This document shows positions 145 through 51,698 of a stretch of 53,865 bases of DNA, piece by piece. The stretch covers positions 1 through 53,865 of IMG/VR virus record IMGVR_UViG_3300029267_001426. One strand, written 5' to 3'. Both the position numbers and the translations under genes were made by a program. Position 1 is the first letter of the stretch. Each line of letters starts with the position of its first letter. The notes below the pieces were generated by a model, which was not told the origin of the DNA, did no database searches, and saw nothing but the letters and a program-made list of their open reading frames with translations. The stretch comes from a virus.

Positions 145-752
145 GTTTTGACATCCCCACTGACACCATTGATGCCTATGCCATTTCAGACAATGTGGCC
201 AGGCTGACTGTGGACCAGGTCTGGCAATTTGAGGCACGCCGAGACATGGCCAAGATGGACATCCATCTGGAATTCTACATGGCCAGCCATTGCATGATCT
301 GTGGCCAGGTCATGTGGTCCTATGTGGACAGCCTTGAATCCATCGGCTATCACATGGCCAACAGAATCCCCTGTCCCCACTGTGCCAGACCTGACAGCCC
401 CTTTGAACCTAACATCACCCTGATGGACCTGGACCAGCTGGCTGCCCTCGAGAACCTAGCAGCCACAGCAGTGGCCCAGCTGACACTGAGACTGGCCAGG
501 GAACAGCTGGCCCTTGAACAGGTCAATGCTGACATCCTGCTGGCTGCTGACTGGGATGGCAAGAATACGCCACTTTGCAAGGCCCAGGCTGTGGCCATCC
601 TTGCTGAAAGTGAACAGGCCCAACAGGCCCAGGACCAGGTCTGGCTGACAGAATGCGAACTGGACCAGGCCAAGGCTGAACAGGCCCACTATGCCCAGAA
701 AGCCCGGCTATACAGGGCCTATCTGGACAGCATGCCCAGGCCCAGAAACTGA
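3..752 (+). CDS. Hypothetical protein, 3' part of a gene that crosses the window junction (5' part is 53622..53865)
   Basis: Frame 3 is open from base 3 and continues in frame from ATG 53622. The joined product is about 283 aa. It has HCMICGQ...CPHC cysteine pairs and then an Ala/Gln-rich coiled-coil-like tail. Stop is TGA 750..752. Confidence 0.7.
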   Translation, partial: QDALDQLAAETHPSLADLALASLDLVKDDLAQVPVIFAGQALATFSKRFDIPTDTIDAYAISDNVARLTVDQVWQFEARRDMAKMDIHLEFYMASHCMICGQVMWSYVDSLESIGYHMANRIPCPHCARPDSPFEPNITLMDLDQLAALENLAATAVAQLTLRLAREQLALEQVNADILLAADWDGKNTPLCKAQAVAILAESEQAQQAQDQVWLTECELDQAKAEQAHYAQKARLYRAYLDSMPRPRN

Positions 753-813
753 CATCACCCAGGGGCATCAGTCCCCACCCACATTGGGGCACAGCCCCCA
801 AGGAGCAAAACAG

Positions 814-1371
814 ATGAAAGAACAGTGTCCGGTCCCCAAGGAAACCCTGGCCCAAGCCAGGATTGAAATCCCCCCTGGTTCCCCCTATGACCGCAACCGC
901 GCCCAGCTGGTGAACAAAGACATGATCCAGGCCAGCCTGGGCCACATGATTGATGAACCGACCACCAGCCCTGTCTGGTTCGGACCCACACCAGTCTGGT
1001 CAGCAGGCATTCACCCTGGCAGCCAGCCCCATGGAACCTTTCTGGGTTTCCAGATGGCCATATTCAATCTGAACACATTCGGCCATGTCCAGATGGCCGC
1101 CATTCAGGCCAATGAAATCTTTGACTGGTCCCAATGGCCTGCCCGGCGTGCCACCTTTGCAGCCCAGCTGGTGTCCAGCTGCCAGACTGCCATTGACCTG
1201 AAAAAGGCCATGCTGACAGACCTGACCAGCCAGCCGCCCAAGACTGTGACCAAACGTTACAAGGAAAGGGTCCAGGCAGCTGAACAGTCTGTCCAGCAGG
1301 CTGAACATAACCTGGCCACCATGCTGGATGTGATGGGGATGTCCCCAGACAAGGATGAATCTGATGACTGA
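814..1371 (+). CDS. Hypothetical protein (185 aa)
   Basis: ATG 814 is preceded by AAGGAG with a 7-nt spacer. The upstream part of track ORF 691..1371 has no RBS and overlaps the previous gene. Confidence 0.65.
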   Translation: MKEQCPVPKETLAQARIEIPPGSPYDRNRAQLVNKDMIQASLGHMIDEPTTSPVWFGPTPVWSAGIHPGSQPHGTFLGFQMAIFNLNTFGHVQMAAIQANEIFDWSQWPARRATFAAQLVSSCQTAIDLKKAMLTDLTSQPPKTVTKRYKERVQAAEQSVQQAEHNLATMLDVMGMSPDKDESDD

Positions 1372-2695
1372 GAAAGCCCAAGACCAGGCCCCTGTGGCCT
1401 TAGTTCAAGTCCAGACCATCTGGGCAGCTGGCAAGGAATTCCCTGACATGGATGCTGCCCTGAGACATCAAGACCAGATGCTGGTGGCCCCCTTTCTGTC
1501 CTACTATGTGAAATGGCGAGCCATGCGGGTTTCCAGGGACAAGAAAAGGGCCTTGGCTGCTGCCTACATTGACAGCCGGGCTGTGATGGACAGGCTTGAT
1601 TATGTGTTCGGGAAAAGGGGCTGGTCCCCCCATTACACTGTGACCCCAAAGGGCCTGATGTGTGACCTGACTGTGACCTGGGCAGATGGCACAGTCACCA
1701 CAAAGTCAGCCCTGGGCCATGCCGGTGGGGGCATTGACATTGGGGAAAAGGGTGATGAATCTGATGCCCTGAAAAGGGCTGCTGTGGTCTATGGTGTGGG
1801 GCGCTATCTTTACAGAATGCCCAGCCCCTGGGTGGACTATGATGACCGAGCCAAGCGGCTGACCAGGCTGCCCCCCTTGCCTGACTGGGCTGACCCCAAA
1901 GGGGACCCCACAGCTGATGGCGCGCCCCCTGTGGGTTATGCCCCAGAACCTGAACCTGACACCACAGAGGCCCCCAAGCCAGAACCCCAGACCAGGCAGC
2001 CTGCCAGGCAGACCAGGCAGCCCAGAACCCCTGGGGAAAGCCAGCCGGCTGCTGGCCAGGAAATCCTGACTGCTGGGTCCAAGACAGGGGAACCCCTGGC
2101 CACACCCATCCAGGACCTGGCCATCTGCAAGGTCACTGATGAAAGACCACTGCCTGGCAATTGGAAACTTTTCTACGAAATGGCCCTGGGTGGCAAGTAT
2201 GGTGAATATGCTGCCCAGCCCCATGTGGTCAATGCAGTCAGGCAGTATTTCCCTGGGTTCAACCGGCGTGGCAAGAACAGGCAGAATGTCAGCATTCACC
2301 AGGCATGGTCTGTGATCCTGTTCAGGACCTTGACTGAAACCCAGCAGGCCACTGTCATGGCATCTGCCAGCCAGTCCATCCAGAAAGGTGTCCCCCAGGA
2401 ACCTGAACAGGATGACCTGGATGAAACCAAGGGCAAGCCTGAACAGCAGGCCAAGGCTGGTGGGGATGCCCACTGGGCTGACCAGGAACACCCAGACAAT
2501 CAGCTGGTCAGCTGGTTCCAAGTCTTGGGCCTGATGGACCTGTCCCCAGCTGTGGCTGTCCATGACGGTCTGGGGACAGCCACCCTGCTGGACTATTCTG
2601 GGACCTTTGACCAGGCCATCACTGCCTTGATGGAAAAATGGCCTGAAAAGGCCAAGGCAATGGAAAAGAAACTGGCTGCCCAGTCCCAGAACTAG
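1364..2695 (+). CDS. Rad52/Rad22-family single-strand annealing protein
   Basis: Contains AYIDSRAVMDRLDYVFG...SDALKRAAVVYGVGRYLY, the signature of Rad52-like phage annealases, followed by a Pro/Gln-rich low-complexity tail. The start is ATGACTGA, overlapping the upstream stop. An alternative ATG is at 1355. Confidence 0.8.
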   Translation: MTEKAQDQAPVALVQVQTIWAAGKEFPDMDAALRHQDQMLVAPFLSYYVKWRAMRVSRDKKRALAAAYIDSRAVMDRLDYVFGKRGWSPHYTVTPKGLMCDLTVTWADGTVTTKSALGHAGGGIDIGEKGDESDALKRAAVVYGVGRYLYRMPSPWVDYDDRAKRLTRLPPLPDWADPKGDPTADGAPPVGYAPEPEPDTTEAPKPEPQTRQPARQTRQPRTPGESQPAAGQEILTAGSKTGEPLATPIQDLAICKVTDERPLPGNWKLFYEMALGGKYGEYAAQPHVVNAVRQYFPGFNRRGKNRQNVSIHQAWSVILFRTLTETQQATVMASASQSIQKGVPQEPEQDDLDETKGKPEQQAKAGGDAHWADQEHPDNQLVSWFQVLGLMDLSPAVAVHDGLGTATLLDYSGTFDQAITALMEKWPEKAKAMEKKLAAQSQN

Positions 2696-2719
2696 GGCAG
2701 ACAAGCTGAGAAAGAACAG

Positions 2720-2758
2720 CCGCCATCCCCCTGGGCACAGCCTGGGCAGGGATGGCGG
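2720..2758 (+). terminator. Stem-loop after the annealase gene (10-bp arms ccgccatccc / gggatggcgg)
   Basis: A perfect 10-bp inverted repeat with a 19-nt loop lies 25 nt after the stop. There is no U-tract, so terminator function is uncertain. Confidence 0.4.
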
Positions 2759-2800
2759 TAGAGCGAGCAGCCCCACTGGGGCAGAAAGGTCAGGATCAAG

Positions 2801-3706
2801 ATGTTTGTGGCTTTTGATATTGAAATCACTGCTGGGGTCCATGGGCCAGACTGGTCCATTTTTCGCCCCTATGGCATCAGCTGTGCTGCCACCAAAGTGG
2901 ACGATGAACCAGTCAAGGTCTGGCATGGGGATGGGGACAAGCTGACCCTGCCTGGAATCACCCATCCAGAAAGGATGACCCCAGGCCAAGTGGCTGAACT
3001 GGCCAGCTATCTGCTGAGCATGACCCACTGTGGTCACAGGGTGGTCACTTGGAATGGCTTGGGCTTTGATTTTGACGTCTTGGCCGAGGAAAGCCGGAAC
3101 CCCAAGCTGGCCAGGGAAATCTGTGAACTGGCCCTGAACCACATAGACCTGGGGTTCCTGATGCGCTGTCAGCTGGGGTTCATGGCCAAGCTGGTCAAGG
3201 TGGCCCAGGGCCTAGATGTGGGCAACAAGACCGAGGGCATGCATGGTGGCCTGGCCCCTGTGCTGTGGACTGGAAACTGGCCAGACATCCAGGATGAACA
3301 GGACCTGGCCGAGCTCCGCGCCCAGGTCCAGGCATTGGCCCTGGCCCAGGGGGCTGGGTTCATGCCAGGCAATAGGATGGCCCAGGACCTGGTCTGTGAA
3401 TATGTGGGCCAGGATGTGATCCTAACCATGGATGTGTGCCAGGCCCTGATTCAAAGACGATCGGTTAACTGGATCACTGGCAAGGGGACCCCATCACAAA
3501 GACCCTGGCGCCCGACCATGGCCAAGACAGGCATGGGTCCCAGACCACTGCTGGCCAGGGAATGTCTGGCCAAGGTCCAGGAACCAAACACCAGCTGGAT
3601 GACAAACGCACCCAAGCCCAGGGAATCCTATTATGAATGGATGAAACCCCATCTGGGGACCTATAACCTGGCCATGGCCCTGACTGGCCAGCCCCTGGCA
3701 GACTAG
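2801..3706 (+). CDS. DnaQ-like DEDDy 3'-5' exonuclease
   Basis: Exo I is FDIE, Exo II is WNGLGFDFDVL and Exo III is EYVGQDV (YxxxD), in canonical order. RBS is AGAAAGG upstream of the ATG. Confidence 0.7.
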   Translation: MFVAFDIEITAGVHGPDWSIFRPYGISCAATKVDDEPVKVWHGDGDKLTLPGITHPERMTPGQVAELASYLLSMTHCGHRVVTWNGLGFDFDVLAEESRNPKLAREICELALNHIDLGFLMRCQLGFMAKLVKVAQGLDVGNKTEGMHGGLAPVLWTGNWPDIQDEQDLAELRAQVQALALAQGAGFMPGNRMAQDLVCEYVGQDVILTMDVCQALIQRRSVNWITGKGTPSQRPWRPTMAKTGMGPRPLLARECLAKVQEPNTSWMTNAPKPRESYYEWMKPHLGTYNLAMALTGQPLAD

Positions 3707-3721
3707 CAGAAAGGGAACCCG

Positions 3722-4630
3722 ATGACAAGCATGACCATGGCAATCAAGCCATACTGGAAACCAGAACCCAAGGCCCCAGACAAAGACTGGCTGGCCCCAC
3801 TGCTGAAAAAGTCCCTGTGGGTATCAGGCACAGGCTGGGCCATCTATGGGGTCTTTGCCTTTGCCTTTCAGGACATTGATGTCATCCCTGGCTGGCTACA
3901 GTCAGCCCTGGTGATCTTGGGGTCTGCCCTGATTGTCATCGGCGCTGAAATGAACACTGCCCCCACCAGTGTGGCTGTGTTCAGGAAACTTGGGGCAGGA
4001 AAGGCCCACTGGCTGGATGTGGCTGCCCTGCTGCTGTCCTTTGTGGGGTCCATCTTTTCTGCCCTGCTGACATTCTCAGCCAGACAGACACTGCTGGGGG
4101 AACAGGGCTGGCGCGCGTGGATGCTGGCCAAGGGTCCCATCTTTGCTGGTGTGGCCACAGCTGCTGACTATTATGCTGCCACAGCTGAACTGGGCCTGTT
4201 ATCTGCTGACTATGAAAGGGACATGGAAACCTGGCTGGCAGGGAAAGCAGAATGGGAACAGGCCCAGCTGCCCCAGCTGCCTGCCCATGTCGACGATGAC
4301 CAAGCCTGGCAGCCCAGGACAGCCCCCTTGGCCCTGCTGGCAAGCATCCTGGGGATTGAACTGACTGATGAAATGATGGACGCCTTGTCAGCTGCTGACC
4401 CATCAGTCCAGGACTATGCTGAACTCGAGGTGGACCCCAGCTGGCCCACAGGGGACCTGGATGACCTGAAAGTCATCATTGGCAGGCTGAATGGCCAAGG
4501 GGCCACCATCACCAGGGGGCAGCTTGAACAGGAATTCATCAAGATGGAAAGGCAGCCCCCCAGCCTTTCCACCATGAAACGATATGTGAAAAGGGTCCAC
4601 AAGGCCAGCAGGGATGCTGCCCATGTCTGA
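3722..4630 (+). CDS. Multi-pass membrane protein, unknown function
   Basis: RBS AGAAAGGGA lies 5 nt before the ATG. There are at least four hydrophobic segments in the N-terminal 150 aa and an acidic C-terminal half. Confidence 0.7.
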   Translation: MTSMTMAIKPYWKPEPKAPDKDWLAPLLKKSLWVSGTGWAIYGVFAFAFQDIDVIPGWLQSALVILGSALIVIGAEMNTAPTSVAVFRKLGAGKAHWLDVAALLLSFVGSIFSALLTFSARQTLLGEQGWRAWMLAKGPIFAGVATAADYYAATAELGLLSADYERDMETWLAGKAEWEQAQLPQLPAHVDDDQAWQPRTAPLALLASILGIELTDEMMDALSAADPSVQDYAELEVDPSWPTGDLDDLKVIIGRLNGQGATITRGQLEQEFIKMERQPPSLSTMKRYVKRVHKASRDAAHV

Positions 4631-5000
4631 CCAGCCAGAAAGACTGCTGAGACTGCCCGAGCCCAGGCCCCCAACGCCCACCAGCTATCTGGGTGGGTCT
4701 GGGCCTGACACTGACACTGGCTGTGACCTCTTGGGCCAGGCTGCCCTGATTGTCTTGGCCATCTGTGTCCTGGCTGTGGTAGGAATGACCCTGGCCACTG
4801 AAATCAGGGACAGGGTGGCCTGGTCCACTTGCCAGGCTGCTGGCTTTGACGATGTCTGGGTCAGCAGACAGGCATGGTGTGTCCAGGCTGACCCATTCAT
4901 CCTGGTCCCCATTGACCAGGTCATTGGGCAAGTGGATGGGCTGAACCCAGGCTGGATGCCTGGCAGACAGCCAGAAAGGAATGGTGATCAAGATGCCTGA
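4623..5000 (+). CDS. Small membrane protein (125 aa)
   Basis: The start is ATGTCTGA, overlapping the upstream stop. There is one hydrophobic helix (AALIVLAICVLAVVGMTLA). Confidence 0.6.
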   Translation: MSDQPERLLRLPEPRPPTPTSYLGGSGPDTDTGCDLLGQAALIVLAICVLAVVGMTLATEIRDRVAWSTCQAAGFDDVWVSRQAWCVQADPFILVPIDQVIGQVDGLNPGWMPGRQPERNGDQDA

Positions 5001-5424
5001 AACACCAGACACAGTCATCACTGGTGGGGGCAGAGGTTCAGGGGTCAGGGAATTGATATTCCGTGGCGAAAGGACGAACCCGAAAGCTGTCATGGCCCAG
5101 ACTGGGGCCTTTGCCCTGGCTGGGGCCTTGATGACCTGGCTGATAGTGGCCATCATAATGGTCTGGGTCCCCAGGCCCTGGGCCTGGCTGGGTGACCACT
5201 GGCGATGGCCAGTCACCATCAGCCTGGTCAGTGGGGTCATAGGGGCAGCCATCCTGGGCCATGTCATGTTCATTGAAAGCTATGATCCCATGCATCCAGG
5301 GGCCAGACAGCCACTGAACACATCCAAGCCAGTTTTCCCCTGGACCAAAGAAAAGGCGCGCTGGCCTGAAATGCCAGCAGCAGAAAGGCTGCCAGATGTG
5401 GAATCTTATGATCTGGATTCTTAG
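4993..5424 (+). CDS. Small membrane protein (143 aa)
   Basis: The start is ATGCCTGA, overlapping the upstream stop, with AGAAAGGA 12 nt upstream. There are two hydrophobic helices. Confidence 0.6.
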   Translation: MPETPDTVITGGGRGSGVRELIFRGERTNPKAVMAQTGAFALAGALMTWLIVAIIMVWVPRPWAWLGDHWRWPVTISLVSGVIGAAILGHVMFIESYDPMHPGARQPLNTSKPVFPWTKEKARWPEMPAAERLPDVESYDLDS

Positions 5425-6763
5425 GGTCATCCTTGTGGGCCTTGGCCTGGCAGCCTTGACCTGGCTGGGGTCCATGGCCTGGGATGTGATCTTTCTCAGA
5501 ATGCGCCGCTGGCAGATTCACCAGGTCAAGCTGGGGGCCTTAAGGCACAAGGCTGCCATGGCAGCATTCAAACAGCTGGCCACTGACCCCAATGGGCGTG
5601 GTGGCTGGGTCTTGACGTCCACTGGGGACATCTTGCATGACCTGGACAGCCCAGCTGAAAGAATCCTGCTGGCAGCCAGCAGGGCCAGCAGGGCCACCCA
5701 GGCCCAGGTCCTGAACCAAGACCCTGAACTGGTGGACCCTGACCCTGTGCCCCAGCTGCCAGAATACTTGCCATCAGACAAGGTCATCAGGGGCCAGCAG
5801 CTGACCTATAGGTCCCTGATTCTGGGCCAAGGCCCTGATGGCCTGGTCCAGGCTGGGATGGACAAGCTGGTCCACTTGGCTGTGGGTGGGTCCAGTGGCT
5901 GGGGGAAATCAATGATGCTCCGCTGGGTGGCCTATCAGCTGGCCAAGTCTGTGGACATGGTTCAGCTGGCCCTGGTGGACCTTGAGGGTGTCACCCTGGC
6001 CCCCTTTGAAACCTGTGCAAGGACCCTGTGGCCAGTGGCTGAAAGTGGGGCTGGGGCCTTGAGGCTGGCCCAGGCCCTGACTGATGAACTGGACCACAGG
6101 AAAGACCTTTTTACCCAGTTCAGGGACCAAGGTGTTGACAGCCTGGCTGCCTATAACAGCCTGGCTGACCAGCCCTTGTCCCCAATTGTGCTGATCGCCG
6201 ATGAAATGTCAGCCCTGTTGGAGGATGCCAAGGTTGTGGATGCTTTCAGGCCCTTGATCTTTAGGTCCAGGAAATATGGAATCTGGAATGTCTGGGGCGG
6301 CCAAGACTGGAAAGCTGGCACGATGCCCACAGCAGTCAGGAACCAATTCAGCAGCCGCATGCACTTTCATGCCATGTCCAGCAGCCAGTCCAGGGTCTTG
6401 CTGGGAATGCCTGGGGCTGAACACTTGACCACAGCTGGCAGGGCCTTGGCTGTTCTGCCCGGGCGGCCGCCGATTGAATTTCAGGCCCCCATCTTGGGTG
6501 ACAATGACATCAGGTCCATCATAGGAAATGGCCCAGTCAATGACTGGCCAGACTGGCATCCCCCTGGGGGCTGGGACAATGCTGCTGATGAATGGGATGC
6601 TGAACAGGCCACCCTATATGACCAGGTCAAGGATGCCCTGGCTGCTGGGGCTGACAACCCCACTGCCATCTGTAGACATCTTAAGATGTCAGCTGGTGGT
6701 CAGAACTGGTATAAAATCAAAGACATCCTGGCCACCATCCAGGAAATGGAACCCAGGGCCTAG
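5396..6763 (+). CDS. FtsK/SpoIIIE-family DNA translocase-like ATPase, membrane anchored
   Basis: N-terminal TM helix, Walker A GGSSGWGKS, Walker B IVLIADE, and RKYGIWNVWGGQ. A C-terminal segment (LYDQVKDALAAGADNPTAICRHLKMS...) looks like a winged helix. RBS is AGAAAGG. Confidence 0.8.
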   Translation: MWNLMIWILRVILVGLGLAALTWLGSMAWDVIFLRMRRWQIHQVKLGALRHKAAMAAFKQLATDPNGRGGWVLTSTGDILHDLDSPAERILLAASRASRATQAQVLNQDPELVDPDPVPQLPEYLPSDKVIRGQQLTYRSLILGQGPDGLVQAGMDKLVHLAVGGSSGWGKSMMLRWVAYQLAKSVDMVQLALVDLEGVTLAPFETCARTLWPVAESGAGALRLAQALTDELDHRKDLFTQFRDQGVDSLAAYNSLADQPLSPIVLIADEMSALLEDAKVVDAFRPLIFRSRKYGIWNVWGGQDWKAGTMPTAVRNQFSSRMHFHAMSSSQSRVLLGMPGAEHLTTAGRALAVLPGRPPIEFQAPILGDNDIRSIIGNGPVNDWPDWHPPGGWDNAADEWDAEQATLYDQVKDALAAGADNPTAICRHLKMSAGGQNWYKIKDILATIQEMEPRA

Positions 6764-6767
6764 TCTA

Positions 6768-6828
6768 CTACTCCTTACCCTGGCCCCTTACAGGGCAGGA
6801 ACAGGCCCCTGGGGCCTGTAAGGAGTAG
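6768..6828 (+). terminator. Compound stem-loop after the FtsK-like gene
   Basis: 11-bp arms ctactccttac / gtaaggagtag enclose an inner palindrome caggcccc-t-ggggcctg. There is no U-tract. The CCGACCAAG motif and the next RBS follow immediately. Confidence 0.4.
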
Positions 6829-6857
6829 ACCGACCAAGACAGAAAGGGAAACCAAAG

Positions 6858-7331
6858 ATGAAAAAGACCAAGAACATGACCCTGCTGCTGGCAATTCTGA
6901 TGGCTGTCCTTGTGGGGGGCTGTGTCCCGACTCAGCCCAAGCCAAGTGAATTGGCCATGGCAAGCATAGTGGCCCAGCAAGAAATGGCCAAGGCCCAACA
7001 GGCCCAGGCCGAGACAGACCAGGCAGCCTTTGACCTTTTGACCTTTGTGGCTGCCCAACAGAATGAACTGGCTATGGAAATCGCCCAGACCAATTCCTAT
7101 GTCACCAAAGAAACCACTGATGCCTTGCTGGCCCTGGCACTCGAGGAACACCAGGCCAGGGTGGAATGGCGTGAATACTGGCAGACCATTGGCTATGTTA
7201 TCCTGGCCATCACATTCATCACCCTGTTCATCTTGCTACTGATAACATGTGAGGACCCAGGCTGGCTGCCCCGGCGTCTGGGCAAAAGGACAGTCACTTA
7301 CAGGGTCAGGGGGCAAGATGACCCCAGCTGA
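6858..7331 (+). CDS. Lipoprotein with C-terminal TM helix
   Basis: The signal peptide ends in the lipobox LVGGC. RBS is AGAAAGGGA. The middle is coiled-coil-like and the C terminus has the hydrophobic segment IGYVILAITFITLFILLLI. Confidence 0.75.
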   Translation: MKKTKNMTLLLAILMAVLVGGCVPTQPKPSELAMASIVAQQEMAKAQQAQAETDQAAFDLLTFVAAQQNELAMEIAQTNSYVTKETTDALLALALEEHQARVEWREYWQTIGYVILAITFITLFILLLITCEDPGWLPRRLGKRTVTYRVRGQDDPS

Positions 7332-7620
7332 ACAGGAAATCCAGGCTGCCCAGGCCAGGGCAAAAAAGGCCCTGGTCAGGCCCCTGGGCATTGACCCTGA
7401 TGCCAAGAATCCCAGGCTGCTGGACATCAAGCCTGACCCTGACAAGGTCCTGGCTGAGATTCACACCGACCTGTGGTCAAGTCTGTGGTCAGCCTGTGGC
7501 AGAAATCCTGACCTGGTCAAACAGGTCATGGCTGCCCTGGCTGACCCTGATGTGGTCCACATCACAGTCACTGCTGAAAGGGCTGACATCATGATTGAAC
7601 AGGATGTGGACCATGTCTGA
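7318..7620 (+). CDS. Hypothetical protein (100 aa)
   Basis: This is the first ATG that clears most of the upstream gene, overlapping it by 14 nt. The upstream part of track ORF 7249..7620 lies inside the lipoprotein gene. Confidence 0.55.
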   Translation: MTPAEQEIQAAQARAKKALVRPLGIDPDAKNPRLLDIKPDPDKVLAEIHTDLWSSLWSACGRNPDLVKQVMAALADPDVVHITVTAERADIMIEQDVDHV

Positions 7621-8428: not shown

Positions 8429-8430
8429 AC

Positions 8431-9365: not shown

Positions 9366-9403
9366 GGCTGCCCTGTCACCATCCCAGGCCCAGATGGGGC
9401 CTG
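9351..9403. terminator. Two hairpins between convergent blocks (bidirectional terminator candidate)
   Basis: Hairpin 1 is cagggcagcc-actag-ggctgccctg (10-bp stem, 9351..9375) and overlaps the TAG stop. Hairpin 2 is caggccc-agatg-gggcctg (7-bp stem, 9385..9403). Confidence 0.55.
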
Positions 9404-9406
9404 CTG

Positions 9407-9823: not shown

Positions 9824-9846
9824 GTCAGATTCCTTTCTTTTGTGGG

Positions 9847-42519: not shown

Positions 42520-42532
42520 GAAAGGAAACCCC

Positions 42533-43263: not shown

Positions 43264-43574
43264 TGCCAGCCCCCAAGTATTCTGCCAGACCAGACACGAA
43301 CCAGCCAGAAATAGTGGCAGCCCTGACAGCCCTGGGCTTTCTGGTTCTGGTGGTAGGGGGCAAGCTGGGTGTCACTCCGGACATTCTGGTCTGGGGTTAC
43401 AATGCCAGAACCCAGCAGCATGAATGGACTGCCTGGGAAATCAAGACAGCCACTGGCAAGCTGTCACCAGCCCAGAAACATTTCATGAACGTCCTATGGC
43501 CAGGGGCAGTCAAGCTGACCAGGTCACTGGACACCATTCTGGCCTACTATGGCCAGGGAACACAAGGAGCATAG
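43263..43574 (+). CDS. VRR-NUC / PD-(D/E)xK nuclease (resolvase-like)
   Basis: 103 aa with GVTPDILVWG...WEIKTATGKLSPAQ, matching the D...E-x-K pattern of VRR-NUC proteins. TAATG overlap with the upstream gene. Confidence 0.6.
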   Translation: MPAPKYSARPDTNQPEIVAALTALGFLVLVVGGKLGVTPDILVWGYNARTQQHEWTAWEIKTATGKLSPAQKHFMNVLWPGAVKLTRSLDTILAYYGQGTQGA

Positions 43575-43577
43575 AAC

Positions 43578-44288: not shown

Positions 44289-45175
44289 TCCCCTTGACAG
44301 ACAGAAACATCCCATTGAATGCCTGGCCTGAGACAGGCATGCTTGAACCCCAGCCAGAACCGGCCGAGGCCAGGCAGGCCAGGGCCTGGGGCTTGTATCA
44401 GATGACAGGCTGGCACATCTGCGACCTGGTCATGAATGATGACATGGCCCCCCAGGAATATGCTGACTGGGTCCACCTTTTCAAGGCAGCCCCCACCATG
44501 CTGGTGGCCATCCAGGCTGATGAACTCTACCACCAGCATGTGGTCTTGTGCCCCATCTGCCGGACTGGGGACCTGTGCCCTGCTGGCCAGGCCATGAATT
44601 CCCAGGCCCAGAAAGCCAAGGACCTGGCCATCCTGCTGGCCAAAGGTGTGGACATTGGCATCCTGACCAAAGAATACATCAAGGCAGCCAGGCTGGACCT
44701 GGGACCCACACCAGGCCCCTGGATTGACATCTGTGATGCTGCCCCCCACTATGGCCAGACAGTCTGGGCCTGGTGTGAAAAGGCCCCCCAGTATAGTGGG
44801 CCTGGGCCTGCTGTTGTGCGGCGAGTAGGGGCCAGATTCAAAGCTGTCAGCCACCCTGACCGGCCCTGGGTCCACATCAGCCACTGGATGCCCATACATG
44901 AACCTGACAGCCCACAGCCCCTGTCCTTTTCTCAGCATGTGGGCTGGGTGGCCATTGATGACCAGGAACCCCACCAGGACACTGACATCCTGGTCTGGGT
45001 CTGGGACGATGGCCAGGGCTTTCCCATAGTGGCCCAGTACAGTCCCCCCACTGACCAGGTCAGCATTGACCATGGGAACCCCTGGACATTCCCGAACCTG
45101 GCCACCAGGCCAGTCTATGATGACATCACCCACTGGATGCCCCTGGGGCATCCCACAGAAAGGAACCCATCATGA
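44285..45175 (+). CDS. DUF551-like repeat protein
   Basis: AGAAAGGA RBS and ATGA overlap with the upstream gene. Modules end ISHWMPIHEPD and ITHWMPLGHP. Confidence 0.6.
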   Translation: MIPLTDRNIPLNAWPETGMLEPQPEPAEARQARAWGLYQMTGWHICDLVMNDDMAPQEYADWVHLFKAAPTMLVAIQADELYHQHVVLCPICRTGDLCPAGQAMNSQAQKAKDLAILLAKGVDIGILTKEYIKAARLDLGPTPGPWIDICDAAPHYGQTVWAWCEKAPQYSGPGPAVVRRVGARFKAVSHPDRPWVHISHWMPIHEPDSPQPLSFSQHVGWVAIDDQEPHQDTDILVWVWDDGQGFPIVAQYSPPTDQVSIDHGNPWTFPNLATRPVYDDITHWMPLGHPTERNPS

Positions 45176-46197
45176 CAGTCTGGATCAAGATTGATGAATC
45201 TTTGCCCCCCACAGAAACAGTGGTCCTGGGCTGGATCGAGGAACCCGACAAGCCAGCCATGGCTTTCCCTGCCTTTGCCAAGCTGACTGCTGCTGGGGAC
45301 TGGGAAATTGGGGACCCCAGCCCAGCCATGCAAGTCACCCACTGGGCCTGGATTGCCAGCCCCCAGGAAATGGCAGATGCCCCCACTGATGCCAAGGCCC
45401 TGACTGCCCAGGCCCAAGCCCTGAGAATGGCAGCTGAACATGTAGTCAAGACCAGCCCTGGTGACAAGGATGCCCTGGACCTGGCTGCCCTGATGACCAA
45501 CACAGAGGCCATCATGCGCGCTGGTGATGAACTGATAGCAGCCATGGCCCAGCCCATCCAGGTCCTGGATGACCAGCCATTCCAAGTGGTCAACAGCAGA
45601 CAGGATGGCCAGCCAGATGAATTCCAGACAGCCCCCTGGGCTGGGGATGCCTATCTGGATGAATTGCAGCTGGACCTTGAAACCATATTCCTGGCAGGCC
45701 ATCTGGACCAGCTGCCTTTCCAGATTCTGGATTCTTTGCGGCTCCACTTTGGGGCAGATGGCCAAGATGACACCAGCATGGACCTGACCATTGGCCAGCT
45801 GTCTGTCCTGGATGCCTTTGCAGCCTTTTGCCAATGGAACCATGACAGGGTCAATGTTCACCCAAAGACCCTGGCCTGGGCCTTGAATGCCATCCTGATG
45901 GCCTGCCTGGGCCAGCCCACTGACCTGGTCCACAGGGCAGCCTGGACAATGAGAATGGCAGCCATCCAGCTGGTGGACAAGGACCTGGCTGCCAAGGTGG
46001 ATGACCTGGGCAAGCAGCTGGCAGAGGCCACCCAAGTGGATGACAAGCTGGCCATGGACATGCAGCTGTCAGGGACCCTGGTCTTTCAGAAACACTATGC
46101 ATGCCAAGGCCAGGGCTGTTCAGCCTGTGACCAGGGCTGGGTCTGGGACTGGGCAGTCCATGACCTGGGCCATGGCAAGGGCCAAGGGGCTGACTGA
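45172..46197 (+). CDS. Hypothetical protein with N-terminal DUF551-like module
   Basis: AGAAAGGAA RBS. The N terminus reads WIKIDESLPPTETVVLGW...VTHWAWIASP. Confidence 0.6.
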   Translation: MTVWIKIDESLPPTETVVLGWIEEPDKPAMAFPAFAKLTAAGDWEIGDPSPAMQVTHWAWIASPQEMADAPTDAKALTAQAQALRMAAEHVVKTSPGDKDALDLAALMTNTEAIMRAGDELIAAMAQPIQVLDDQPFQVVNSRQDGQPDEFQTAPWAGDAYLDELQLDLETIFLAGHLDQLPFQILDSLRLHFGADGQDDTSMDLTIGQLSVLDAFAAFCQWNHDRVNVHPKTLAWALNAILMACLGQPTDLVHRAAWTMRMAAIQLVDKDLAAKVDDLGKQLAEATQVDDKLAMDMQLSGTLVFQKHYACQGQGCSACDQGWVWDWAVHDLGHGKGQGAD

Positions 46198-47111
46198 TGA
46201 CTGGCCAGACTGGCTTTGTGGGGGAACAGATTCAAGATGCAGCCCTGCTGTCTATCTCAGATGCTGGGGTCTGCCACTTTCGCTGGGACGATGACCCAGC
46301 CCATGTGCTGAATCTGCCTGCCACCAGCTGTGCCAGGGGTTCCCAGGTTGGGGACACTGGGGTCCTGACCAGATTCAAGGATGGACCCCAGCCCCAAGAC
46401 TGGGCCTGGCGTTTTGAACCTTATCCCAAGGATGGGCCTGTCCAGTCCATAGTCCCCAGCAGCCTGGTCAAGGTCACACCAGTGGGGGCCAAGGTCCTTT
46501 TTGAACTGTCCTATGCTGAATGGTCTGCCCAAGTGTCAAAGATGTGGGACCTATACCGAGCCATGCCATTCATCCTGGGGGACCTGATCGCCTATGGTGA
46601 ACACAGATGGGGCCATACTTATGACCAGGCCCTGGATGCCACTGACTATGAATATGACACCCTGGCCAGTTTTGTCTGGGTCTGTTCCAATGTGCCCTTT
46701 GAAATTCGCAGACCCAGCCTGACCTTTGAACACCACAAGGCTGTGGCCAGGTCATCCATCCCCATCAAGGACAAGGTCCATTATCTTGAACTGGCTGAAC
46801 AAAAGGCCCCAGGCTTTGAATCTGCCAGGGCAATGAAACAGACCATCAGGGACAGGCTGGGCCTGTCCAGTGGCCAGGAAAAGATGGCCTGTCCCATCTG
46901 TGGTGAACTAGAATGGAACGTGAAAGCCTTGCATGGTGTGACCTGTGGCCACTGTGACACCCATGCTGATGAATTGGTCAGACAGCTGCTAGACCTGACA
47001 GCTGACTATGATGACTTGCTGGCCGAGCTCCAACAGGCCAGGCAAGAAATAGCAGCCCTGGAAAGGGCAAGAAAGGAATCCCATGTCCCTAGAATACTCG
47101 GCCCTAGATGA
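46197..47111 (+). CDS. Hypothetical protein (304 aa) with Zn-ribbon and coiled-coil tail
   Basis: TGATG overlap with the upstream gene. It contains the conserved-looking block LGDLIAYGEHRWGHTYDQALDATDYEYDTL...LTFEHHKAVA. Confidence 0.6.
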   Translation: MTGQTGFVGEQIQDAALLSISDAGVCHFRWDDDPAHVLNLPATSCARGSQVGDTGVLTRFKDGPQPQDWAWRFEPYPKDGPVQSIVPSSLVKVTPVGAKVLFELSYAEWSAQVSKMWDLYRAMPFILGDLIAYGEHRWGHTYDQALDATDYEYDTLASFVWVCSNVPFEIRRPSLTFEHHKAVARSSIPIKDKVHYLELAEQKAPGFESARAMKQTIRDRLGLSSGQEKMACPICGELEWNVKALHGVTCGHCDTHADELVRQLLDLTADYDDLLAELQQARQEIAALERARKESHVPRILGPR

Positions 47112-47589
47112 AAACACCATCATTGAACTGGCTGGGGAAAAGACTGCTGCTGAACTGGCTGCCCTGTTCACAAAGAATGGCACGCCAAGGACTGCCCGCA
47201 GTGTATACCAGAAAGCCAGGTCCCTGGGTGTCAGATTCAGGGGGGAACCTGAACCCTGGGATGATTCTGAACTGGACGTCTTGAATGCCTGGGCAGGCAA
47301 GGAAAGCCCCAAGGCCATCGCCGGCCGATTGCCCACCAGGACCAAGGCTGATGTCTTGCACATGGCCAGGTTCCTTGACCTGGACCTGACTGTCCTGGCC
47401 ACCTTTGAAAAGTCTGAAAGGGTCTGGGGCAGGGTCCCTGCTGAGAAAGCCCAGGATGTGGCAGATGCCCTGAATGGCCTGGCCAAGTTTTTTTTGGCTG
47501 AACAGAAAGGGGACTGCCTGGTCCAGACCATCCTTTATGCCTGGGAACAGGCCCAGCTGGTCCAGCTGCCCAGAAAGGGGGACCTGTGA
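47083..47589 (+). CDS. Hypothetical protein, possible HTH regulator (168 aa)
   Basis: AGAAAGGA lies 5 nt before the ATG. It overlaps the upstream gene by 29 nt. Confidence 0.55.
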   Translation: MSLEYSALDENTIIELAGEKTAAELAALFTKNGTPRTARSVYQKARSLGVRFRGEPEPWDDSELDVLNAWAGKESPKAIAGRLPTRTKADVLHMARFLDLDLTVLATFEKSERVWGRVPAEKAQDVADALNGLAKFFLAEQKGDCLVQTILYAWEQAQLVQLPRKGDL

Positions 47590-48278
47590 ACCTGAACACT
47601 GACAATCTTGAACTGGTGATGGATGGCCCACAGTTCCTGGTCACAAAGCGTGAAATCTGCCCAGACTGCAAAGGCAAGGGCAAGATCAAGCATCCTGACT
47701 GGGAAAGGCTTGACCAGGTCATGGCTGACCCTGCTTTCCAGGATGTGTCTGACAAGGGCCACAGGATTGCTGTCCTGATGAAAGAAATGTGGCCTGATGG
47801 GAACCAGCCCCCCACTATCATCCCCTGTGACACATGCCAGACCGAGGGGATCAAGGAAAGCCTGGTCCCCCTGGCCAAGGCCCTGGCCCAGCTGGGCTGG
47901 CAGGCCCCACTAGAAATCAAGGGCAGGCCAGAACTGTGCATGGATTTCCCTATGGACCATGCTGAACATGACCTGGCTGAACTGGACATCAATCCCATGA
48001 TCAAGGGGCTGCTGGTTCAAAGGGGGGGCATCAGCACAGTGGAACAGCTGCTGGACAAGCTGTCACAAAGCCCCCAGGCCATCACTAGCATCAGGGGCAT
48101 TGGGCCTGCCTATCTGAACCAATTGCTTGAACAGCTGTGGGCCTGTGGATTCCCCAAGTGGGGACCCTGGCCCTGGCAAGCTGGGGATGGCATTGACCAG
48201 ACCTGGTGGCAGCCCACACCAGAACAGGCAGCAAAAAGAAAGGAACAGGCACAAAAGGCCAATGACTTGCCATTCTGA
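47586..48278 (+). CDS. Protein with DnaJ-type CxxCxGxG zinc fingers and a helix-hairpin-helix motif
   Basis: CPDCKGKG and CDTCQTEG, then ITSIRGIGPAYLNQLLEQL. GTG start in a GTGA overlap after GAAAGGGGGA. Confidence 0.55.
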   Translation: MNLNTDNLELVMDGPQFLVTKREICPDCKGKGKIKHPDWERLDQVMADPAFQDVSDKGHRIAVLMKEMWPDGNQPPTIIPCDTCQTEGIKESLVPLAKALAQLGWQAPLEIKGRPELCMDFPMDHAEHDLAELDINPMIKGLLVQRGGISTVEQLLDKLSQSPQAITSIRGIGPAYLNQLLEQLWACGFPKWGPWPWQAGDGIDQTWWQPTPEQAAKRKEQAQKANDLPF

Positions 48279-48528
48279 ATTTTATGAACTGGCCCTGATG
48301 GCCCAGCCCAGGGGCCTGAAAGTGGTCATTGAATTCTGGGCATCAGACCAGGGCATCCCCACCATTGATGCTGACACCACAGTCACCATCACTGAACAGG
48401 CTGCCAAGCTGGCTGGCCAGCTGCCGATCGTGGTCACAGCCAGGGGGCCAGCAGCCAAGATGCTGACTGTGGCCACTGAGATTGTCAAAGGGTTCCCCAG
48501 GCTGGATGGGCAGCAGGCCCAAGAATAG
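48262..48528 (+). CDS. Hypothetical protein (88 aa)
   Basis: This is the first ATG near the upstream stop. The RBS is weak and an alternative ATG is at 48298. Confidence 0.4.
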   Translation: MTCHSEFYELALMAQPRGLKVVIEFWASDQGIPTIDADTTVTITEQAAKLAGQLPIVVTARGPAAKMLTVATEIVKGFPRLDGQQAQE

Positions 48529-48538
48529 GAACAGACAG

Positions 48539-48754
48539 ATGAAAGGTCCCCAAGAACAGAAAAGAATCAATGCCATCAAGACCACAAAAAGGTGGGGGCT
48601 GGCCCTGACCCTGGCAGCCTTTTTCAGCCTGCTGATTATGGCTGGGCACATCTGGCCCCAGGATGCCAAGGACTGGCCCTTGTTGGTCACAGGGGCTGGC
48701 TTTTCCCTGGGCTTGTCCTGGCTGATCGCCGATGGAAAAGACTGGCTGTTCTGA
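48539..48754 (+). CDS. Small two-TM membrane protein (71 aa)
   Basis: AGGA lies 8 nt before ATG 48539. The hydrophobic segments are WGLALTLAAFFSLLIMAG and LLVTGAGFSLGLSWLI. Confidence 0.55.
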   Translation: MKGPQEQKRINAIKTTKRWGLALTLAAFFSLLIMAGHIWPQDAKDWPLLVTGAGFSLGLSWLIADGKDWLF

Positions 48755-49317
48755 TGAATAGCTATAGGGCCAGCAAAGGCAAAAGGGGCAAGCCCATTGG
48801 CTGGGCTGACTTGCCTGGTGTGGTCTATCTGCTACACTTTGACAAGCCCCACCATCATGCCCAGCACTATCTGGGCTTTTCTCAGCAGCTGGAAACCAGG
48901 CTGGGCAAGCATTTCAGTGGCAATGGGACTGGCTTGACTCGAGTGATCAAAGAACAGGCAAACAACCATGCAGTCCTGGCCAGGACCTGGCCACACCCAG
49001 CTGGCCTGGGACCTGTGCCAGACAGCCAGCTGGTGGACCAATGTGTTGAAATGGTCCTGAAAGCCAGGGCTGAAAGCCCCAGGCTGTGCCCCATCTGTAA
49101 CCCGGACAAGGCCCTGTCCTTGGCCAGGTATTACACTGTCAAGCCCACAGCTGCTGACCTGGATGGCCAGGACCCTGATGACTGTGAATGGTGGAAACAT
49201 GACCTGGGTCTATTCGTTTTTACTTATGATCCAGACCTGGACCTGATGACAGCTGCCCCACCAGAAAGGACAGACACATGCCAGACATCCCTGGCAACCT
49301 TAGAAATGCTATTCTGA
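48754..49317 (+). CDS. GIY-YIG-like nuclease family protein
   Basis: TGATG overlap with the upstream gene. GVVYLLHFDKPHHHAQHYLGFSQQLETRLGKHFSGNG resembles the GIY-YIG-related phage family. Confidence 0.45.
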   Translation: MNSYRASKGKRGKPIGWADLPGVVYLLHFDKPHHHAQHYLGFSQQLETRLGKHFSGNGTGLTRVIKEQANNHAVLARTWPHPAGLGPVPDSQLVDQCVEMVLKARAESPRLCPICNPDKALSLARYYTVKPTAADLDGQDPDDCEWWKHDLGLFVFTYDPDLDLMTAAPPERTDTCQTSLATLEMLF

Positions 49318-49925
49318 ATGTGGATGCCAGGGACCTGGCTGACCAGCTGCCTGATGCATCCATTGACCTGGTGTTCACTGACCCTGTCTATGACCAGCTG
49401 GATGACTATTTCTGGCTGGCCAAGACAGCTGCCAGGGTCCTGAAACCTGACAGAAATCTGCTGGCCTGGGCCAGTGTGCCCAAGGCTGCCAGGGTCCAGG
49501 GAATGATGGAAATCAGCCCCCTGGACTATGTCTATACCTTGACCTATACCGTGAAAGCCAAGACCTATAGAATGCGCGGCTATCACCTTTTTTGCTGGAC
49601 CACACCCTGTCTGTGGTTCAGAAAAGGGGCTGGGTTCATGCCTGACCCCTGGGTCCCAGACACGTTCATCAGCAGCAAAAGACCTGATGGCGCTCACAAG
49701 TGGAACAAAAACCAGGCTGTCCTTGGGGCCTGGCTGAAAGCATACTGCCCCCCAGGGGGCACAGTCTGGGACCCATTCTGTGGGGGCGGGTCAATCCCTG
49801 TTATGTGCAAGATGCTGGGCCTGACCTATGTGGCATCTGAGATTGATCCAGACACAACAGCCATGGCCATAGACAGGCTGGCCAACACGCTGCCCCTTTT
49901 TGAAATGATCCAGGGGCAATTCTGA
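49278..49925 (+). CDS. Beta-class amino DNA methyltransferase (N6-adenine or N4-cytosine)
   Basis: Motif IV IDLVFTDPVY precedes motif I VWDPFCGGGS, which is the beta-class order. AGAAAGGA lies 7 nt before the ATG. Confidence 0.75.
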   Translation: MPDIPGNLRNAILNVDARDLADQLPDASIDLVFTDPVYDQLDDYFWLAKTAARVLKPDRNLLAWASVPKAARVQGMMEISPLDYVYTLTYTVKAKTYRMRGYHLFCWTTPCLWFRKGAGFMPDPWVPDTFISSKRPDGAHKWNKNQAVLGAWLKAYCPPGGTVWDPFCGGGSIPVMCKMLGLTYVASEIDPDTTAMAIDRLANTLPLFEMIQGQF

Positions 49926-49938
49926 GAAAGGACCCGAC

Positions 49939-51102
49939 ATGGCCGACCAAGCCAACAAAGAAAGCCCACCAGATGAACTGGATGTGATCCAGCACAGAAA
50001 TCCAGTGGATGCCCTGGGCTGGGCAATGATGTCCCATGCAGCCACCTTGGACAAAGACCTGTCTGATGGGGCCTATAGACTGCTGGGCCTGCTGATTATG
50101 CATGCTCAGCAGAAAGGAATCTGCTGGCCCCTACGTGAAACCATGGCAGACAGGCTGGGTGTGTCCCCTGAAACCATCAGCCGCCGACTGAAAGAACTGG
50201 CCCAAAGGGGTTACATCACCAGACAGCGCAGGCTGGACAAGTCCACCCTAACCTGGATGGAAACCTGGAACCAGAACCCCAGATTGATCATGGTGGCCAT
50301 TGATGAACTGGTCAGACAAGCCCAGGCCAGGGCTGACAGGTCCCAGGGCACACATGTCAGAAATGACATGAATGACCTGTCAGGAATGACAGGAATGACC
50401 TGTCAAGAATGGCATGAGGAAGAAGAACAACATGAACCAGAACAACATGAAAAAGAAACTGGCCAGCCAGCTGGCCAGGGTCTTTCTGGGGACCAGGGGC
50501 CTGAAAGTGGGCCTGGGAGTGGGGACCCCACATCTGACCTGGATGCCCTGCTGGGCAGGCCCCCACTTTCCAGCCAGCCCAGGTCTGGGCCAGCCACCCA
50601 GGGCCTGGACCTAACAGGGGCCACAGACTTGCTGGACGTGATTCAAAGGGCAGCAGCCCACAAGGCCAGTGGAAAGGCAGCCAGGGCAGCAGCTGTGGCC
50701 AGCCCCCACCAGGCAGACCTGTCCCCCTGGGCAGCAGGCCCCCTGGATGAATTCTGTGAACTGGTGGCCAGGTCTGTGGATGGCCTATCAGCATCTGAGG
50801 CCAAGAACTGGCCAGCAGAATTGGCCAAGCTGGCCGCCGATCGAAAGAAACCAGCCACACCAGATGAACTGGCAGCAGCCATCAGGATGGTGGCAGACCC
50901 CAAAGGGGATTTCCATTTCATGACCTTTGTGTCCCCTTTTGGGGATGGGTTCAAGTCTGCTGTGAACACTATGCTTGATAGGCATCGGCGGGGCGTCTCA
51001 GCTGATGCCATCACCCAAGGACCCCAGGACCAGGCCAGGGATGGGGACATTGGGGCTGACCAGAAAGCATCCTTGGCCCATGCATTCAGAAAGGGAAACT
51101 GA
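49939..51102 (+). CDS. Replication initiator-like winged-HTH protein
   Basis: LRETMADRLGVSPETISRRLKELAQRGYITRQRR is the wHTH. GAGAAAGGA RBS. It lies upstream of the DnaC-like loader gene. Confidence 0.6.
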   Translation: MADQANKESPPDELDVIQHRNPVDALGWAMMSHAATLDKDLSDGAYRLLGLLIMHAQQKGICWPLRETMADRLGVSPETISRRLKELAQRGYITRQRRLDKSTLTWMETWNQNPRLIMVAIDELVRQAQARADRSQGTHVRNDMNDLSGMTGMTCQEWHEEEEQHEPEQHEKETGQPAGQGLSGDQGPESGPGSGDPTSDLDALLGRPPLSSQPRSGPATQGLDLTGATDLLDVIQRAAAHKASGKAARAAAVASPHQADLSPWAAGPLDEFCELVARSVDGLSASEAKNWPAELAKLAADRKKPATPDELAAAIRMVADPKGDFHFMTFVSPFGDGFKSAVNTMLDRHRRGVSADAITQGPQDQARDGDIGADQKASLAHAFRKGN

Positions 51103-51104
51103 CC

Positions 51105-51698
51105 ATGGCATTTTTCAAGACCAAGAAAGATGGGGGGCTTTATGAACAGACATACTGTGCCCACTGTGTCCACCAGCAGGGCTGTCCTGTGCTCGAGCTC
51201 CACCAGGCTTGGAATGATGAACAGCATGGGGTCACTGTCATCCAAGAAACCAAAAGACTGGCCCTGGAAACCTTGATCCCCCAGGGGTCTGCTGGGCCTG
51301 GCCCTTGCCGCCTTTTCCAGCCCAAGCAGACCAGCTGGGCTGGGGATGAATTTGAATACCAGGTCATGCCCATCACATCCATTGGCCTGCCCCTGACAGA
51401 ATATCCTGGCCGCCATCCCCCTGGGCTGGTGGACCTGGGGAACCATGGCTGGATGCTGGCAGCCATCCACAGCCCAGCTATAGGACCAGTGTGGGCTGTG
51501 TTCTACCGTCGCAAGGCCCAGGGAATGCCCCTGGCCAGCAGGCTGGCTGCTGTCAGGTTCCTGGTGGAAACAGCCCCTGGCAGCCCAGTCCCCCCACCTT
51601 TTGAGGTCCCCGGCTTTGCTGTTGGGTTCCCTGAACCAGACCAGACCAAGAACCCAGTCCAGCCCAACAGCCCCCCAGAGGATGGCCCATGTTCCTAA
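51105..51698 (+). CDS. Hypothetical protein (197 aa)
   Basis: AGAAAGGGAA lies upstream of the ATG. Confidence 0.6.
   Translation: MAFFKTKKDGGLYEQTYCAHCVHQQGCPVLELHQAWNDEQHGVTVIQETKRLALETLIPQGSAGPGPCRLFQPKQTSWAGDEFEYQVMPITSIGLPLTEYPGRHPPGLVDLGNHGWMLAAIHSPAIGPVWAVFYRRKAQGMPLASRLAAVRFLVETAPGSPVPPPFEVPGFAVGFPEPDQTKNPVQPNSPPEDGPCS

Follow-up and report, generated by a model that had tools for sequence, protein, structure and literature searches.

Excess of CpG-containing palindromic hexamers in a CpG-poor phage genome, possibly the visible part of a neighbour-dependent rule of CpG survival

Several processes are known to distort the frequency of short words in genomes. Phage genomes reportedly avoid restriction sites, in the form of short palindromes. 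In E. coli, the Dcm methylase and very-short-patch (VSP) repair by Vsr are said to skew word counts, and scarce CTAG together with abundant CCAGG/CTGG is the pattern of Vsr-shaped genomes. Cyanobacteria are said to carry highly iterated palindromes of the HIP1 type (GCGATCGC). A further system is the hypermodification of phage DNA to 5-carboxymethylcytosine by CmoA, CmoX and a ligase (Yang et al. 2025, PMC12783734); there, SpCmoX targets GpC and not CpG, the specificities of homologues are left open, and an Asn-synthetase-like class of glutamine-dependent ligases is mentioned. We have analysed the CpG dinucleotides that survive in the genome of a tailed phage, IMG/VR record IMGVR_UViG_3300029267_001426. 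The window, meaning the whole stretch of DNA analysed, is this complete record of 53,865 nt; positions 53722-53865 repeat positions 1-144, a 144-bp direct terminal repeat, which leaves a unique genome of 53,721 bp (1..53721). A preliminary description of this DNA had proposed that its CpGs are concentrated in a few palindromic hexamers, which would escape the process that depletes CpG in the rest of the genome. The surviving CpGs are not organised by palindromy. It is quite possible, although we hold this reading tentatively, that the hexamer excess reflects, for the most part, a broader rule in which the survival of a CpG under a strong purge of short words depends on its neighbours.

The genome has a G+C content of 57% and contains 651 CpGs, an observed over expected ratio (o/e) of 0.15, so that about 85% of CG is lost. 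TpA is also low (o/e 0.35), GpC is normal (0.96) and CA/TG stands at 1.63, which shows that the CpG deficit is balanced by a TpG/CpA excess. Word counts were compared to two nulls, in which synonymous codons were permuted among positions with identical flanking bases (1000 samples each, P being the fraction of shuffles reaching the observed count). The first keeps proteins, codon counts and all dinucleotide counts, the second keeps all trinucleotide counts instead; expected values are given below in this order. A flank-3, tetranucleotide-preserving null hardly mixes at rare words; being uninformative, it was set aside.

CTCGAG was found at 12 sites (447, 4424, 7140, 9105, 16907, 22375, 29101, 32301, 36113, 40055, 48938 and 51192), for 1.6 and 2.1 expected (P=0 in both cases), and none of the 1000 shuffles had more than 5. 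Nine of its 11 coding sites are in frame as CTC GAG (Leu-Glu), a spelling used for 9 of the 67 Leu-Glu pairs when CTC makes up 36 of the 1528 Leu codons, and coding need indeed does not account for it, as had been proposed. CGATCG was found at 9 sites (3458, 10270, 15729, 17038, 22995, 31601, 34643, 48425 and 50838), for 0.3 and 1.9 expected (P=0 in both cases). In 8 of the 9 the word is extended to CCGATCG on one strand, and GATC, which represents 2.2% of GNNC words, is nevertheless found in 9 of the 35 CGNNCG sites. The 12 GACGTC sites (3074, 5614, 10698, 13952, 14636, 21596, 26718, 31545, 33314, 34486, 34654 and 47275) compare to 4.3 (P=0) and 6.4 (P=0.004); half of them are read GAC GTC (Asp-Val) and half ACG TCC (Thr-Ser). 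GCGCGC was found at 14 sites (1920, 4111, 5356, 9451, 9663, 17384, 25477, 25582, 29582, 31962, 33192, 34808, 41014 and 45516), for 2.4 (P=0) and 8.8 (P=0.003). Its count is fully predicted by the frequency of GCGCG flanks around CGCG (15.4 expected with a fourth-order Markov model), which makes GCGCGC a particular instance of the CGCG doublet. Finally, the 5 GTCGAC sites (4289, 11033, 22990, 32689 and 43872) compare to 1.9 (P=0.03) and 4.1 (P=0.39), so that this word is not enriched once trinucleotides are kept.

Taken together, the five words amount to 52 sites, none in the terminal repeat, and to 75 of the 651 CpGs (11.5%, or 1 in 8.7), in agreement with the estimate of one in eight in the preliminary description. 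Its hand counts were right within one (14 GCGCGC instead of 13, the site at 25477 having been missed, and 12 GACGTC instead of 11), several of its GCGCGC positions were off by 1-10 nt, and a CTCGAG placed at 48948 lies at 48938. The enrichment itself resisted the shuffles that preserve codons, proteins, di- and trinucleotides for four of the words, GTCGAC being lost under the second null.

Palindromes as a class were not spared. The 16 NNCGNN palindromes had 50 sites altogether, for 52-59 expected with Markov orders 1-4, and five of them (TTCGAA, TACGTA, CACGTG, AGCGCT and ACCGGT) had no copy in the whole genome. Ratios to the base-composition expectation did not differ between palindromic and the 120 non-palindromic NNCGNN classes (Mann-Whitney P=0.91). 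Single-CpG palindromes were observed 48 times, for 48 and 39 expected, and hexamers with two CpGs were in excess whether palindromic (32, for 7.5 and 15.8) or not (240, for 107 and 149). Some non-palindromic words ranked as high or higher: CGCCGA (23 for 3.5), CCGGCG (17 for 2.4), ATCGGC (33 for 10) and CTCGGC (23 for 6.6). The exact NNCGNN count against Markov and codon-shuffled expectations, which had been suggested as a check, thus retains four enriched words and gives no enrichment of the palindrome class, and the concentration in palindromic hexamers is not borne out, these words being at expectation as a class and several being absent. That some contexts are exempt does survive the codon, amino-acid and trinucleotide controls, with the exempt class redefined: instead of a few palindromes, it comprises any CpG that has a second one no more than 4-5 nt away or that overlaps a GAG/CTC. 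A practical lesson is that a striking excess of a few palindromes calls for a comparison to every other word of their class before site-specific protection is proposed.

The distances between successive CpGs carry this redefinition. Gaps of 2, 3 and 4 nt were observed 39, 62 and 33 times, for about 7.7 expected each (5.0, 8.1 and 4.3 fold), and the excess stopped sharply at 5 nt (9 observed for 7.5, 1.2 fold). When CpGs at most 5 nt apart were linked, clusters of 1, 2, 3, 4 and 5 CpGs numbered 397, 85, 21, 4 and 1, exactly a geometric distribution with q=0.22, which is near the value for DNA without CpG depletion. Clusters contained 254 CpGs (39%), compared to about 102-142 (16-22%) in the nulls. 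The word CGAG was found 92 times, for 51-57 in the nulls. Clusters and CGAG/CTCG cover 320 CpGs genome-wide; since they include 66 of the 75 CpGs of the five named words, half of the GACGTC CpGs belong to these classes. Independent loss of CpGs cannot produce such clustering, because random thinning leaves the pair correlation unchanged. We also examined 48 other loci, each 12 kb or longer, and none had the doublet excess (among them are relatives by the portal protein with normal CpG, and 16 phage contigs with CmoX-AsnB, CpG o/e 0.41-0.63), the pair excess at distances of 2-4 nt in these relatives being only 1.0-1.8 fold. One super-cluster, with five CpGs in 16 nt (22989..23005, GCGTCGACGATCGGCGGG), combines a GTCGAC and a CGATCG. 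As a separate observation, clusters repel each other at 13-30 nt, with 49 gaps for 79-104 expected overall and 90-104 in the shuffles.

Synonymous codon choice was examined at the same scale. At NNY|G junctions, C was used in 8% of the cases when the resulting CpG was isolated, and in 39-63% with another CpG within a few bases; it was used in 49% before GAG and 3.6% before GAA, and in 83-93% at synonymous Y sites before A or C. Likewise, GAG was preceded by C in 31% of the cases, and GCG in 20%, compared to 4.3% for G generally. At freely synonymous sites, the penalty on CpG was about 65 fold for an isolated one, and about 7 fold with a CpG within 4-5 nt or with AG following, which for a neighbouring CpG is a drop of about ten fold. 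The words CGAG, CGCG, CGNCG and CGNNCG each carry one penalty, not two, and independent (multiplicative) action of the sites was not what we observed. Pairs of Arg codons behaved similarly: CGN-CGN was used 31 times, AGR-CGN 10, CGN-AGR 6, and AGR-AGR never, because GAG or GAAG would arise. After a CGC Arg codon, the next Arg was CGN in 9 of 15 cases; after other C-ending codons, CGN was used in 14%.

Four candidate explanations were tried and rejected. Longer patches of un-ameliorated DNA do not fit a pair correlation that is close to 1 by 5 nt and dips to about 0.5 at 13-34 nt. A single-base flank preference cannot be the main cause, the effects around CpG being weak (0.05-0.25), and the target-context preference of a C5 enzyme, one of the causes initially listed, is not visible in this simple form. 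Single-step trapping, where escape from CpG makes a banned word or alters the protein, explains only 189 of the 603 coding CpGs (31%); GGCGCC is a clear local case of it, GGTGCC having 0 copies for 20-60 expected. Finally, GpC-directed protection as for SpCmoX misranks the GCGC, GCGD and HCGD contexts, and GAGC is not enriched.

CpG is one among several words missing from this genome. GAG/CTC has 295 sites for about 1860 expected, and GAAG/CTTC 14 for about 480, on both strands and in all frames; on the coding strand GAAG has 14 copies and CTTC 0. Some 20 palindromic hexamers are found at 0-1 copies for 5-86 expected, symmetrically on the two strands and independently of frame: GGGCCC 0 for 86, CTGCAG 0 for 16-46, AGGCCT 1 for 39, GGATCC 0 for 11-22, CATATG 0 for 9-24, and CCTAGG, AGATCT and AAGCTT 0 each. 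Asymmetric words are scarce too (CTGGAG 1 for 14-33, ACCTGC 0 for 31, CACCTG 1 for 36, CACCCC 0 for 36). These bans conflict with each other in codons. Before G, Glu is written GAG 98 times and GAA 13 times (n=111), because GAA would there make GAAG, and Glu is followed by Ala, Gly, Val, Asp or Glu, whose codons begin with G, in 14.5% of the cases for 37.5% expected, which shows that the ban reaches the protein sequence. The share of CGN among Arg codons is 84% when the preceding base is G, 53% when it is T and 14% when it is A or C, AGR being used in 86% wherever allowed. About 130 CpGs are Arg CGN codons following a codon that ends in G or T, a position in which AGR would give rise to GAG or TAG. 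Under decay by deamination, CGN is expected as the main Arg codon, which the 14% after A or C contradicts. Deamination does not lead from CGN to AGR, and the prevalence of AGR, like the altered dipeptide usage, argues for selection; this item of the initial list of causes is supported. Along the same lines, Phe after C is TTT 136 times and TTC 0, and Lys after G is AAA 121 times and AAG once. Codon choice is almost wholly set by the next base: Ala is GCC in 88-91% before A or C, and before G it is GCT in 65%, GCA in 28% and GCC in 4%.

These results can be brought together in a tentative scheme. Our counts show that CG, TA, GAG/CTC and GAAG/CTTC, together with many restriction-type hexamers, are banned whatever the strand or frame, and that the penalty on CpG depends on its neighbours, from which geometric CpG clusters and CGAG/CTCG units result. 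GCGCGC, CGATCG and CTCGAG are symmetric overlaps of such units, and GTCGAC sits in a triple-CpG palindrome, CGTCGACG. The purge would result largely from selection of the defence-avoidance type, not from deamination alone. Once a stretch of about 6 bp contains one banned word, another one would add a small marginal cost, as if harm consisted of one recognition, cleavage or hypermodification per short stretch rather than per dinucleotide. We therefore favour a non-additive, selection-driven purging of short words. A mutational component is plausible in addition, because the CA/TG excess balances the CpG deficit and G+C is 6-7 points under that of portal relatives, and a CmoA/CmoX-AsnB hypermodification system encoded by the phage, to judge by its genes, may be a player that makes CpG either costly or protective. 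A neighbour-dependent exemption, combined with codon conflicts with stronger bans and a few palindromic or polar motifs, is a better description than exempt palindromes.

A number of points weigh against this scheme. When the 604 CpG hexamer classes are ranked under the trinucleotide null, CTCGAG and CGATCG occupy the first two places. Wherever GAG and CTC lie within 14 nt of each other, they form one of two perfect palindromes, CTCGAG (12 sites) or GAGCTC (8 sites), and GAGGAG has 0 copies. Pure proximity is therefore not the whole explanation. In the 4.3 kb of non-coding DNA, which is as CpG-poor as the coding part, another CpG lies within 5 nt of only 4 of the 45 CpGs, compared to 22% overall; this argues against a purely steric model at the DNA level and hints at a component acting at the coding level that our description does not capture. 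Ordinary restriction gives multiplicative costs, not sub-additive ones, and the step of one hit per stretch lacks a citable precedent. The solved relative of the CmoX enzyme targets GpC, not CpG (PMC12783734).

Two of the alternatives involve modification of the DNA by enzymes of the phage. A gene for a CmoA-like carboxy-S-adenosylmethionine (SAM) synthase lies at 34207..34941 on the minus strand (TIGR00740 CmoA, E=1e-40, full-length, below the curated cut-off), and its predicted product has a SAM-methyltransferase fold. It adjoins, at 34955..37540 on the same strand, a gene fusing a C5-cytosine methyltransferase-like domain of CmoX type to an AsnB-type glutamine amidotransferase/ligase (PF00145, PF13537, PF00733). 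The best solved relative of the fusion is 8yf3 (SpCmoX, E=6e-53), and both the SPPC motif and the Arg of motif X are present; the nearest relatives do not share its target-recognition region. A small beta-class N6/N4 DNA methyltransferase, weakly CcrM-like, is encoded further away (49278..49925, plus strand).

With these genes, surviving CpGs could reflect a mutation-driven decay combined with an enzyme context preference: CmoX-modified CpG would deaminate or mispair to TpG/CpA, and poor substrates, namely CpG beside an already bulky modified CpG, or in CGAG/CTCG, would be spared. We regard this as unlikely, although it has real arguments. Besides the presence of both genes and the balance between CA/TG excess and CpG deficit, G+C is 57% here and 62-63% in the nearest portal relatives, a gap close to the 6.9 points predicted for a loss of about 3700 CpGs, and at four-fold sites T is favoured over A before G 2-6 times more than elsewhere. 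Yet SpCmoX targets GC and homologue specificity was left open (PMC12783734), the target-recognition region differs from that of the nearest relatives, CpG is normal in the phages whose methyltransferase domains are closest, and marine CmoX-AsnB phages (CpG 0.4-0.6) have no doublet excess. In addition, the bases flanking CpG have weak effects when taken singly, mutual steric exclusion would by itself yield, by our own calculation, a doublet excess of only about 2 fold, and the AGR dominance and reshaped dipeptides require selection. On a side note, the marine CmoX-AsnB phage contigs (L066-L124, 37-42% GC) are depleted in both GpC (0.5-0.7) and CpG (0.3-0.65).

An explanation of similar, low probability is that the phage hypermodifies its own CpG cytosines with CmoX-AsnB, to 5-carbamoylmethylcytosine, and that modified stretches are costly, by hypermutability or by attack of modification-dependent nucleases. 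CpGs would then be purged to vertebrate-like levels, and kept where one modification already exists, that is in clusters, or where they mask a banned nuclease target (CGAG/CTCG, CGATC, CpG-containing palindromes). If true, this would be the first self-inflicted, context-structured CpG depletion in a bacterial virus.

A residual, word-specific layer remains, some of it inside longer motifs. GAGCTC, which has no internal CpG, is found at 8 sites (3311..51200) for 0.2-3.4 expected, and 5 of these are inside the 10-mer GGCCGAGCTC (3307, 22121, 36106, 40048 and 47021, all on the plus strand). The 8-bp, triple-CpG palindrome CGTCGACG (11032, 22989, 32688 and 43871) holds 4 of the 5 GTCGAC sites; its 4 copies, for 0.00-0.07 expected, are in three different reading frames. 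TGATCGCCGATG is present in 6 copies, all on the plus strand (6192, 10284, 21414, 27061, 36390 and 48723), each with a CGCCG doublet and a GATC, and it includes the interrupted palindrome ATCGNCGAT (6 for 2.1). GAGCTCGAG occurs 4 times, each copy holding a CTCGAG site. The 12 CTCGAG sites are unusually even around the circular map, the smallest gap being 1965 bp (P about 0.002, analytic, for 12 random points on a circle). CTCGAG, GAGCTC, CGATCG and CGTCGACG keep an excess specific to each word and probably have a function of their own, and the palindrome intuition of the preliminary description was not empty. Whether such signals, as protein-binding or Chi-like polar sites kept by selection despite the banned words they contain, explain the hexamer excess as a whole is another matter. 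We consider it distinctly improbable, despite the copy numbers, strand bias, frames and spacing just described: they cover at most about 60 of the 651 CpGs and under half of the 52 hexamer sites, GCGCGC and GACGTC have no extended consensus, and the sites are putative, with no known binding protein. As an observation apart, TGATCGCCGATG and GGCCGAGCTC are confined to the plus strand whatever the gene orientation, a polar behaviour of the Chi or KOPS kind.

Still more doubtful is the proposal that host methylation, followed by T:G repair of the very-short-patch type, restores or creates CTCGAG, CGATCG, GACGTC and GCGCGC while other CpGs decay. The palindrome-specific excess of CTCGAG, GAGCTC and CGATCG would fit, as would the scarcity of CTAG and abundance of CCAGG/CTGG in this genome. 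The skew typical of such repair, with the target up and the T:G product down, was seen for CTCGAG (12 sites, for 3 of CTTGAG/CTCAAG) but not for GACGTC, CGATCG or AACGTT, whose decay products are at expectation (GATGTC 77 for 78-80, TGATCG 15 for 8-11, AATGTT 10 for 9). Most exempt words are non-palindromic, many other CpG palindromes are absent, no vsr-like gene was found among the phage proteins scanned, and geometric clusters, Arg-Arg pairs and CGAG are left unexplained. Protection or repair at host-methylated palindromes, as put forward at first, thus finds little support. Lastly, a by-product of codon usage, amino-acid or low-order oligonucleotide composition is hardly credible, being largely refuted by the shuffles: Asp and Val are preferentially written GAC and GTC, pentamers predict GCGCGC and GTCGAC is not significant under the trinucleotide null, but for four of the five words the observed count was reached by none, or almost none, of the 1000 constrained shuffles, and single-step trapping leaves most coding CpGs aside (189 of 603 covered).

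The rest of the genome is that of a tailed phage, with a portal fused to a Mu-F-like domain, a large terminase, head protease/capsid, an Erf-type recombinase, DnaD-like and DnaC-like loaders and other phage proteins. By our own gene calling, 92% of the genome is occupied by 59 genes, which lie in three strand blocks. A candidate tRNA-Ala (anticodon AGC, 91 nt, 40766-40856, minus strand, found with ARAGORN) lies partly across the beginning of a gene on the plus strand and is perhaps a false call. Viral, metagenome and genome collections yielded no close relative, the portal being at best 54% identical, and a portal search across 185,579 genomes matched only mixed contigs of metagenome-assembled genomes. 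The portal (30033-32399) is rich in Gln, 7.5% compared to 2.9-5.2% in eleven homologues, with slightly lower Arg; at conserved columns of the same comparison, no excess of Arg replacement by Trp, Gln, His or Cys was detected. Among distant portal relatives, L011 has a CpG o/e of 2.07 and CA of 0.68, L056 and L057 have CpG around 1.7, CA of 0.54-0.61 and GAAG of 0.02-0.11, and L043 combines GAAG of 0.16 with GAG of 1.88.

If the neighbour-dependent rule holds, whatever reads short words in this phage does not count them one by one, which constrains the nature of the agent and provides a sequence-only signature usable on other genomes. The genome is in any case an extreme natural example of word purging, with bans on words of 2-4 nt, codons set by context and reshaped dipeptides. 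As it carries a member of the newly described carboxymethyl-cytosine family, it also offers a test bed for the relations between hypermodification, defence avoidance and mutation.

Compared to known systems, the likeness is each time partial. As in HIP1, the CGATCG core is over-represented far beyond composition; unlike HIP1, there are only 9 copies, 8 of them read as CCGATCG, the octamer GCGATCGC is absent and none of the 9 sites has G...C on both flanks. The VSP skew of E. coli is matched by CTCGAG, 12 for 3 of its deamination product CTTGAG, and by scarce CTAG, and departed from in that the decay products of other words are not depleted, most spared contexts are non-palindromic and the phage proteins scanned include no Vsr. 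The genome resembles vertebrate-type CpG depletion with CpG islands by its CpG o/e of 0.15, its matching TpG/CpA excess and the clustering of surviving CpGs. This clustering has, however, a scale of 2-4 nt instead of hundreds of bp; moreover, Arg is mostly AGR where allowed, which points to selection, unlike methylation followed by deamination.

The likeness to the CmoA-CmoX-ligase system lies in the genes: a CmoA-like gene adjoins a C5-methyltransferase-like gene with SPPC and the carboxylate-binding Arg, and SpCmoX is the nearest structure. The ligase is here fused to CmoX, the target-recognition region differs, and, where SpCmoX targets GpC, the word depleted in this genome is CpG, GpC being normal (o/e 0.96). 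Restriction-site avoidance shares with this genome the strand-symmetric, frame-independent absence of many 6-bp palindromes (0-1 copies), the lack of Type IIS-like words (CTGGAG 1 for 14-33, ACCTGC 0 for 31), and the means, a context-dependent choice of synonymous codons. It differs from what we describe here in that the banned words include some of 2-4 nt (CG, GAG/CTC, GAAG/CTTC), too short for classical recognition sites, that the ban reaches the protein sequence, and that overlapping banned words are tolerated, which independent sites would not predict.

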